A DNA stretch of 44,330 bases from the IMG/VR virus record IMGVR_UViG_2541047714_000011, one strand, 5' to 3'. This document shows positions 42,318 through 42,641 of this stretch, one piece after another. The position numbers and the translations under genes are program-made. Position 1 is the first letter of the stretch. Every line of letters begins with the position of its first letter. Source of the DNA: a virus (lineage: Duplodnaviria > Heunggongvirae > Uroviricota > Caudoviricetes). The notes under the pieces are model-generated. The model was given only the letters and a program-made list of their open reading frames with translations, searched no databases and was not told the DNA's origin.

Positions 42318-42333
42318 TTGCAGGTTCGATTCC
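42318..42333. repeat. 16-bp copy of the argW T-arm (ttgcaggttcgattcc) upstream of torI
   Basis: Identical to 1054-1069 inside argW; distinct from the attR core. Confidence 0.6.
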
Positions 42334-42352
42334 CTATTCGGAGATAGCACTC

Positions 42353-42553
42353 ATGCAACACGAACTACAACCTGATTCACTGGTTGATTTGAAATTCATC
42401 ATGGCCGATACTGGCTTCGGTAAAACCTTCATCTACGACCGAATTAAGTCCGGAGACCTGCCTAAAGCCAAAGTTATCCACGGGCGAGCAAGATGGTTAT
42501 ATCGTGACCATTGTGAATTCAAAAATAAGCTCTTAAGCCGCGCCAATGGGTAA
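42353..42553 (+). CDS. torI: Excisionase / recombination directionality factor, TorI-like (AlpA family)
   Basis: 66 aa MQHELQPDSLVDLKFIMADTGFGKTFIYDRIKSGDLPKAKVIHGRARWLYRDH... as recalled for KplE1 TorI; next to attR. Confidence 0.8.
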   Translation: MQHELQPDSLVDLKFIMADTGFGKTFIYDRIKSGDLPKAKVIHGRARWLYRDHCEFKNKLLSRANG

Positions 42554-42568
42554 AATAGCGGGTAAAAT
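42548..42568. promoter_or_regulatory. Direct GGGTAAAAT repeats at attR overlapping the torI stop
   Basis: gggtaaaat at 42548-42556 and 42560-42568; same motif as at attL. Confidence 0.4.
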
Positions 42569-42626
42569 ATTTCTCACATCTAAAAAACATCATTCCAATC
42601 AATCCCCTGCCGCGTCAAGTAGATGT

Positions 42627-42641
42627 CTGCAGGGGACACCA
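42627..42641. repeat. attR core (copy of the argW 3' end)
   Basis: ctgcaggggacacca identical to 1069-1083. Confidence 0.7.

Follow-up and report, generated by a model that had tools for sequence, protein, structure and literature searches.

The closest described relatives of the locus studied here are the site-specific recombination modules of the Escherichia coli K-12 prophage KplE1 (CPS-53) and of HK620, Sf6, CUS-3, and Kapi1 (PMC2951348, PMC3509656, PMC8787464). In KplE1, the core shared by the attachment sites is the 16-nt sequence CTGCAGGGGACACCAT. The integrase gene intS has its own promoter (PintS), which was mapped downstream of the core and overlaps attL, the excisionase gene torI lies at the other end of the prophage, and the control of excision targets this gene, which encodes the recombination directionality factor (RDF) (PMC2951348). 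TorI occupies five cooperative sites on attL (PMC3509656), and attP is located between xis and int (PMC8787464). We analyzed a module of this kind in a stretch of 44,330 nucleotides from a virus of the Caudoviricetes (IMG/VR record IMGVR_UViG_2541047714_000011), which is referred to as the window throughout. In the window, torI is preceded by an exact 16-nt copy of the T-arm of argW, the tRNA gene at which the prophage is integrated. With a probability of about one half, we take this copy, the T-arm box, to be a tRNA-derived element kept by selection in the torI leader, vestigial in origin and acting in cis on torI expression.

The locus is a typical representative of the KplE1/HK620/Sf6 recombination module as published. 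It shares with the systems named above the core, TorI (100%), the position of attP, the arm-type and TorI-type repeats, and the PintS layout (PMC2951348, PMC3509656, PMC8787464), and its att region is 96-98% identical to those of HK620, Sf6, and K-12. The window contains a full-length, P22-like prophage resembling Kapi1 (PMC8787464 for Kapi1), whereas KplE1 of K-12 is a 10-kb remnant; the module itself does not differ between them. The argW gene, encoding tRNA-Arg(CCT), was located by ARAGORN and by sequence at 1009-1083 on the plus strand, and the prophage restores its 3' end (attL). The core is duplicated at both junctions. Of its 16 nt, CTGCAGGGGACACCA(T), 15 are matched exactly on the plus strand at 1069-1083 (attL core; cf. 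the 16-nt KplE1 core, PMC2951348) and at 42627-42641 (attR core). Immediately downstream of argW and in the same orientation, as is characteristic of the KplE1/HK620 type, intS (1245-2402, plus strand) encodes a tyrosine integrase of 385 aa from the ATG at 1245, with an arm-binding N domain (Arm-DNA-bind_3, Phage_int_M, and Phage_integrase). The torI gene (42353-42553, plus strand) is found at the opposite prophage end from intS, and its product, an excisionase of 66 aa, is 100% identical to K-12 TorI, HkaC of HK620, and gp18 of Sf6. The records of HK620 and Sf6 show the order xis, attP core, int.

The T-arm box in the torI leader

The 16-mer TTGCAGGTTCGATTCC was found without mismatch at 1054-1069 in argW and at 42318-42333 upstream of torI, both times on the plus strand. 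These are its only two occurrences in the window, even at two mismatches, and none of 100 dinucleotide shuffles produced such a two-match outcome. The same was true for the two exact occurrences of CTGCAGGGGACACCA (0/100). When attL (1000-1210) was compared with the whole window by blastn-short, the two segments were the only matches with more than 11 exact nt (E = 0.002 and 0.007). Expressed in tRNA terms, the 16-mer comprises two nucleotides of the variable loop (TT), the 5' strand of the T-stem (GCAGG), the T-loop (TTCGATT), and the first two nucleotides of the 3' T-stem strand (CC). Identity to argW stops at the edges of the 16-mer on both sides. ARAGORN did not report a tRNA or pseudo-tRNA at 42318, and the 3' T-stem strand is missing in the window; a T-arm hairpin is seen only in the box versions of Edwardsiella, P. 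stewartii, and Serratia.

The box stands at the centre of a leader of about 45-50 nt, which is composed of the terminator tail, ATTGCCTG, the box, 6-7 nt, a Shine-Dalgarno sequence, and the ATG. The intrinsic terminator (42285-42304 plus a T tract ending at about 42310, plus strand) closes the eaG-like early-left region, and homology to P22 and to HK629 stops just before the box, at about 42311 and 42315, respectively. The Shine-Dalgarno sequence GGAGA (42340-42344, plus strand) follows 6 nt past the box and is kept in relatives. The distance from the box to the torI start is 19 nt, that from the torI stop to the attR core is 73 nt, and box and core are about 290 bp apart. In argW, the two segments share only base 1069. 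An earlier sequence-only reading of the window had claimed an exact 16-bp argW T-arm copy before torI, a terminator upstream of it, and an attR core downstream of the gene, and all of this was confirmed by our analysis.

Recurrence of the box in related modules

Loci with the arrangement xis-attP-int (designated by L and a number) were drawn from one-genome-per-species contigs, IMG/VR, metagenomes, and GenBank phages. The 16-mer is unchanged in KplE1 of K-12, HK620, and Sf6, so it is not peculiar to the window. Its central sequence GGTTCGATTCC is positioned 16-19 nt before the excisionase ATG in HK620, Sf6, and KplE1 and in argW-targeting modules of Erwinia, Edwardsiella, Serratia, Pantoea, Citrobacter, and Salmonella phages. 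A box centred on it, just upstream of the xis ribosome-binding site, was present in 10 of 19 TorI-family loci from different species (Escherichia, Serratia, Citrobacter, Pantoea, Edwardsiella, and others). Comparison of the relatives delimited the part conserved across genera to AGGTTCGATTCCC, which corresponds to 42322-42334 on the plus strand of the window. GGTTCGATTCC is unchanged in ten lineages that share only about 30% identity, the random level, in their upstream flanks, and in eight of the ten it ends 18-19 nt before the ATG. Flanks unrelated to the E. coli leader were seen in Serratia, Pantoea, Edwardsiella, the L308 lineage, L359, two Erwinia phage types, and phiEt88, and in each of these contexts the 11-13-nt centre and its distance to the ATG are unchanged.

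The box is likewise found with divergent excisionases. One copy is present in phiEt88, the xis of which is only 39% identical to TorI, and further boxes were found in the MTHNM lineage and in the MRELRDD family of xis, which is very divergent and in which the arm-type repeats of the integrase read GGGCATA instead of GGGTAAAA and the argW core is the same. It has thus been kept although the sequences on either side differ, excisionase identity falls to 39%, and both the DNA specificity of the excisionase and the arm sites of the integrase vary. Salmonella phage g341c has the box in decayed form. Decayed boxes read CAGTTCGATTCCC, CTGTTCGATTCCC, CCAAGTTCGATTCCC and, in L257, CCAGATTCCC, and even these have retained GTTCGATTCCC. 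In Erwinia phage Midgardsormr38 the box is present as two tandem copies; phages of this type (L003, 2476-2513; L354; L418) carry tandem CAGGTTCGATTCCC copies, 17 nt apart, upstream of xis, and in L418 the gene-proximal copy is mutated to GGTTCGGTTCC.

Clean absence of the box from a close relative was observed in three independent contexts, e.g. ...ATTGCCT|GGAGA... versus ...ATTGCCT-GGCTTCCAGGTTCGATTCCCAAACC-GGAGA.... This is a 25-bp presence/absence polymorphism of GGCTTCCAGGTTCGATTCCCAAACC with GG at both edges (L014, L243, L245, and L247 versus relatives). The box is also absent from L016, L017, and many MRE-family loci. The leaders of L013 (TorI-type) and L232 (MRE-type) are identical at 50 of 50 positions from -50 to -1, whereas the xis coding regions agree at 119 of 198 positions and the sequence further upstream at 54 of 100. 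The xis leader is a separate mosaic unit with a mosaic joint exactly at the ATG. Every module with the box targets argW. When GGTTCGAATCC-N6-GGAGAT was used to scan for a general rule of a T-arm before xis at other tRNAs, no xis genes were recovered, and the gene arrangement is different for the Pseudomonas AlpA homologues (F116, phi297). The box is known in phages of at least seven enterobacterial genera.

Excision in vitro has been carried out with a 135-bp attR substrate generated with the left primer attR-IHF2 (PMC3509656). This primer maps to 42530-42549 in the window, 197 nt downstream of the box, so the box is not within the DNA that excisive recombination requires in vitro. Taken together, the box is not due to chance, keeps a fixed distance to the ATG amid divergence, belongs to a mosaic unit, is dispensable in some lineages, and is not part of the DNA used for excision in vitro.

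Published attR definitions for the KplE1-type module exclude the box, and its identity to the argW T-arm is not mentioned there (PMC2951348, PMC3509656, PMC8787464). GenBank features (Clark et al. 2001; Casjens et al. 2004) mark the same approximately 40 nt as pI/cII upstream of hkaC in HK620 and as "bsq2; boundary sequence" upstream of gene 18 in Sf6. The flanking mosaic joints were confirmed here; neither the tRNA identity nor the cross-genus conservation of the centre is included in these annotations, and the promoter/cII reading is unsupported by conservation. The KplE1/HK620 module and the annotation of the region as promoter or boundary sequence were already known. What is new, as far as checked, is that the box is identical to the argW T-arm, that it is kept in different genera and alongside RDFs and arm sites of differing specificity, and that the data speak against a promoter, an operator, or an architectural element.

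Proposed origin and role of the box

The sequence-only reading had held that the two argW-derived segments, when joined, restore the 30-nt 3' end of argW. Their abutment at base 1069 was verified; the idea of one fragment split by torI did not stand. Exact abutment is confined to the E. coli lineage, whereas the Serratia (L012) and Pantoea (L015) loci have an upstream copy that runs on to ...GATTCCTG (CCTG) and overlaps the core start. Furthermore, the left flank of the core itself reads TTCGATGTA-TGCAGGGG in about ten lineages, from which it follows that attP has its own T-loop-like left half-site. Insertion of torI into a 30-nt argW fragment was ruled out by these two observations. The abutment is better explained by the upstream copy having lost precisely its crossover-competent part, the downstream site needing identity only there.

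We propose that the box is what remains of an additional copy of the argW 3' half, which would once have been situated directly upstream of xis. The crossover-competent part of this copy, TGCAGGGGACACCA, would have been lost or converted to the ribosome-binding region. Two intact direct cores flanking xis would delete xis, and only an exchange-incompetent part would survive; after loss of the TGCAGGGGACACCA part, a deletion of torI by recombination between the upstream copy and the real core would no longer be possible. Of the earlier interpretation of the box as a relic, derivation from the tRNA is plausible and is our preferred origin, and the split 30-nt form was abandoned. The remaining leader was also aligned to TGCAGGGGACACCA (Shine-Dalgarno GGAGA versus GGGGA of the acceptor), and the resemblance was too weak to claim.

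The present role of the box would lie in tuning torI expression in cis, not in strand exchange. Transcription would reach torI only by reading through the terminator; the box lies inside the translation-initiation region. A scan of the plus strand between the terminator and torI found no sigma-70-like promoter, which fits RDF expression via read-through transcripts. Such transcripts were reportedly found by Menouni et al. in 2013 to be controlled by Rho. The leading candidate for a partner of the box is the core-binding/catalytic domain of the integrase, because this is the only protein common to all modules and must recognise the same sequence as the left half-site of attB. The left flank of attP keeps TTCGAT in the tRNA register in about ten lineages, supporting the T-loop as an integrase half-site.

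Several observations weigh against this proposal. A lone core-type half-site of an integrase is normally a weak binding site, and the attP left half-site is devoid of TTCG in several lineages, showing that the integrase tolerates changes there. No trace of the box was seen in the functional-looking relatives L014, L004, L005, L243-249, and L263-268. Neither IMG/VR nor metagenome contigs yielded an intermediate in which a full tRNA 3' end precedes xis, so the origin from a second, disarmed core remains a scenario. Folding of eight leader RNAs resulted in inconsistent structures with z-scores near 0, which were not significant. Sequestration of the Shine-Dalgarno sequence by the box was restricted to the GATTTCC variants and L015, and in the window this sequence was more accessible with the native than with a shuffled box (0.53 versus 0.34). 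These results ruled out that the box acts through a conserved RNA fold or by masking the ribosome-binding site; an Rfam search did not yield a significant match. Finally, the ten lineages of the conservation measure were found via the motif, and identity of their boxes is partly given by construction. The evidence for conservation is recurrence together with fixed position.

The box might instead be a neutral T-arm fragment without present function, carried along in a young, short leader that spreads by homologous recombination as a boundary sequence of the modules. Such a hitch-hiker would account for a leader that forms a mosaic unit of its own and is the same in different xis families, for the label in the Sf6 record, for clean absences without an obvious replacement in several lineages, and for the existence of the decayed versions listed above. 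We nevertheless regard it as rather unlikely, because the centre and its ATG distance are unchanged in all of the unrelated flanks enumerated above, from Serratia to phiEt88, and because the decayed versions still keep GTTCGATTCCC. A different and unlikely possibility is that the box mimics the left half of attB and is bound by IntS. Anchored at the arm sites near the torI 3' end (42548-42567), IntS would reach back to the box with its core-binding domain and loop out or roadblock the 200-bp torI gene, silencing the excisionase in the lysogen directly through integrase occupancy; if true, this looping would be a new coupling of integrase and RDF levels where the genes sit at opposite prophage ends. 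It is also quite improbable that the box serves recombination, either within the attR/attP intasome as an accessory integrase site of the P arm or as an alternative crossover site with the argW T-arm. The box does equal the left half of attB, the attP arms hold other core-like boxes (CCCCTGC at 42604-42610 and AATCCCCTG at 1119-1127), and Kapi1 lysogenises a strain without its 17-bp attB at low frequency (PMC8787464). However, excision in vitro works with an attR starting at 42530 (PMC3509656), the distance between box and core is set by the xis gene and the register of the box follows the torI ATG instead, and some relatives with the same core and arms do not have the box. Among 5,426 complete E. 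coli genomes, neither of the two predicted recombinant junctions was found, i.e. argW-5'/T-arm/torI or terminator/T-arm plus core without torI; 16 apparent matches to the latter proved to be split in two over a normal attP and came from tandem prophages or episomal phage records. On the lack of both junctions in these genomes, active recombination between the T-arms was rejected, and the alternative integration considered in the sequence-only reading was not borne out. Its other suggestion, a functional architectural element of attR, is contradicted by the short attR substrate, the clean absences, the ATG register, and the missing recombinants.

Many RDFs of the AlpA, Vis, and Cox types double as transcriptional regulators. 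TorI might likewise bind to GGTTCGA of the box, which resembles the (A/G)GTTCG(C/T) repeats of the P' arm, and autoregulate torI. The window has five such repeats in its P' arm, matching the five published TorI sites on attL (PMC3509656). Comparison of the loci (window 1090-1179; L244, L253, L263, L267, L290, L297, L302, L305, L306, and L439) revealed that the repeat type goes along with the recognition helix of the RDF: GTTCG with G(F/M)GKTFIY, (A/G)TTACC with FT(A/S)KYFY, and ACCAGAAC with FTDRYFY. Since the box precedes xis genes of all three specificity classes, a TorI operator was ruled out as a general explanation. Moreover, conservation of the box extends to ATTCC(C), which is not common to the P' sites, and a single site is present here, whereas TorI binding is described as highly cooperative. 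Autoregulation by this route is accordingly very unlikely; in the lineage of the window itself, TorI might touch GGTTCGA. The HK620 record AF335538 (features 1664-1702) annotates a "promoter: phage integration" and "cII protein" binding exactly at the box, and the Sf6 record repeats this as a possible pI, the TTGC repeats flanking or overlapping the box being the supposed cII site for integration-phase transcription. The spacing is TTGC-N5-TTGC and not N6, the second TTGC reads TTCC, TTTC, or TTAC in relatives and the first TTAC in K-12, and no -10/-35 pair was detected on the plus strand. In addition, a promoter at the box would express the excisionase during integration, and intS has its own mapped promoter (PMC2951348). 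The unconserved repeats, the N5 spacing, and the empty promoter scan do not support a cII/pI or sigma-70 promoter at the box; we consider it highly improbable and the annotation in both records probably wrong. As to chance, GGTTCGATTCC could merely be a generic T-loop sequence, as the central 11-mer of the box is common to other tRNAs, among them presumably glyU with GGTTCGATTCCCT. The match is 16/16 in a 44-kb window, about 1e-3 being expected for any 16-mer of the tRNA, the box sits in the att region of a phage targeting that very tRNA, and it recurs in about ten lineages. In view of its uniqueness, the shuffles, and the blastn-short result, chance resemblance was rejected, its probability being negligible.

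Degenerate or duplicated att repeats are left at tRNA and tmRNA genes by successive or tandem integrations. An example has been reported at ssrA (PMC3146451). Like such repeats, the T-arm box is a partial copy of a tRNA 3' half that has the orientation of the active core and lies some way from it; unlike them, it lies inside phage DNA and travels with the phage, is without the crossover segment, and keeps a fixed distance from a start codon. With the core-type half-sites (B/C) of heterobivalent integrases such as lambda Int it shares identity to the left flank of the attB crossover region, but it has neither a partner half-site nor an overlap region and is remote from the core. Operators of P4 Vis, AlpA, P2 Cox, and 186 Apl are similar in that a short site is found near the regulated gene and the RDF is a winged-helix protein. 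In contrast to these operators, the box does not follow RDF specificity.

How torI is silenced and yet inducible is only partly understood, and the box, as a concrete and easily mutated candidate for RDF control, offers a simple mutational handle on it, the mechanism being a proposal. The box also bears on the origin of xis-attP-int modules, which may have had an att core on each side of xis, one of them disarmed. If it is functionless, it still documents a tRNA fragment fossilised in a mosaic boundary sequence.

The attP arms and other features

The P' arm contains five (A/G)GTTCG(C/T)-type repeats on the plus strand (1090-1096, 1110-1116, 1153-1159, 1163-1169, and 1173-1179; span 1090-1179). 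They are putative TorI sites, because the repeat type covaries with the RDF recognition helix. Within this RDF family, the P' repeat types constitute a natural specificity-swap series, all on the same argW core. Directly after the repeats follows the -35 box TTGACA of PintS (1179-1184). Repeats of the GGGTAAAA type near intS, one direct (1200-1207) and two inverted (1222-1229 and 1237-1244; span 1200-1244, strand unassigned), are putative IntS arm-type sites P'1-P'3, the first of which overlaps the PintS -10; in KplE1, P'1 overlaps the -10 box TAaAAa of PintS (PMC2951348). Two direct GGGTAAAA repeats on the plus strand (42548-42555 and 42560-42567) are candidate arm-type sites for IntS in the P arm, and the one at 42548-42555 overlaps the torI stop codon. 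In the HK620 record they are annotated as an attP repeat.

An IHF-like sequence AATCAATCCCCTG together with the box CCCCTGC occupies 42597-42610 on the plus strand. CCCCTGC (42604-42610) is the inverted complement of GCAGGGG in the core (42629-42635), 18 nt to its left; in the MRE family the distance is about 27 nt. It covaries with the core in L017 (CCCCTAC/GTAGGGG) and Edwardsiella (TCCCTGC/GCAGGGA) and does not in the CCCCTGT variants. CCCCTGC may serve the integrase as an accessory core-type site, belong to the IHF site, or form an RNA hairpin in the 3' untranslated region of torI. The core-like copy AATCCCCTG in the P' arm is in direct orientation.

The attP left flank of the core reads TTCGATGT(A/C), i.e. 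the T-loop in the tRNA register with 2-3 bases changed, in L003, L012, L013, L015, L017, L354, L359, L360, and L418, and is degenerate in the E. coli phages (GTAGATGTC, 42618-42626 in the window). This pattern suggests that the left half-site of the integrase includes the T-loop. Identity between attL and attR extends over 15 nt in the window (...ACCA|g at attR), 16 nt in the published K-12 case (PMC2951348), and 17 nt in Kapi1, and the host flank to the right of the core differs among E. coli strains (ACCAgata, ACCAtcct, and ACCAtgaa). Sixteen complete E. coli assemblies contained an intact attP junction consisting of torI, core, P' arm, and intS, e.g. NZ_CP146940.1, NZ_CP081786.1, and NZ_CM135826.1. 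Some of these were on separate replicons of 12.8-39 kb and others were chromosomal, which points to tandem prophages at argW as well as to phage copies that are episomal or excised.

An open reading frame of 43 aa at 42546-42677 (plus strand) is the counterpart of hkaB of HK620 and gene 17 of Sf6. It crosses the attR core into host DNA, so that its C-terminus differs between phage and prophage forms, and it is probably either not a real gene or a junction-dependent one. The prophage also carries genes for tRNA-Thr(TGT) and tRNA-Asn(GTT) on the minus strand at 24978-25133, just before the lysis genes, as described for Kapi1 (PMC8787464).

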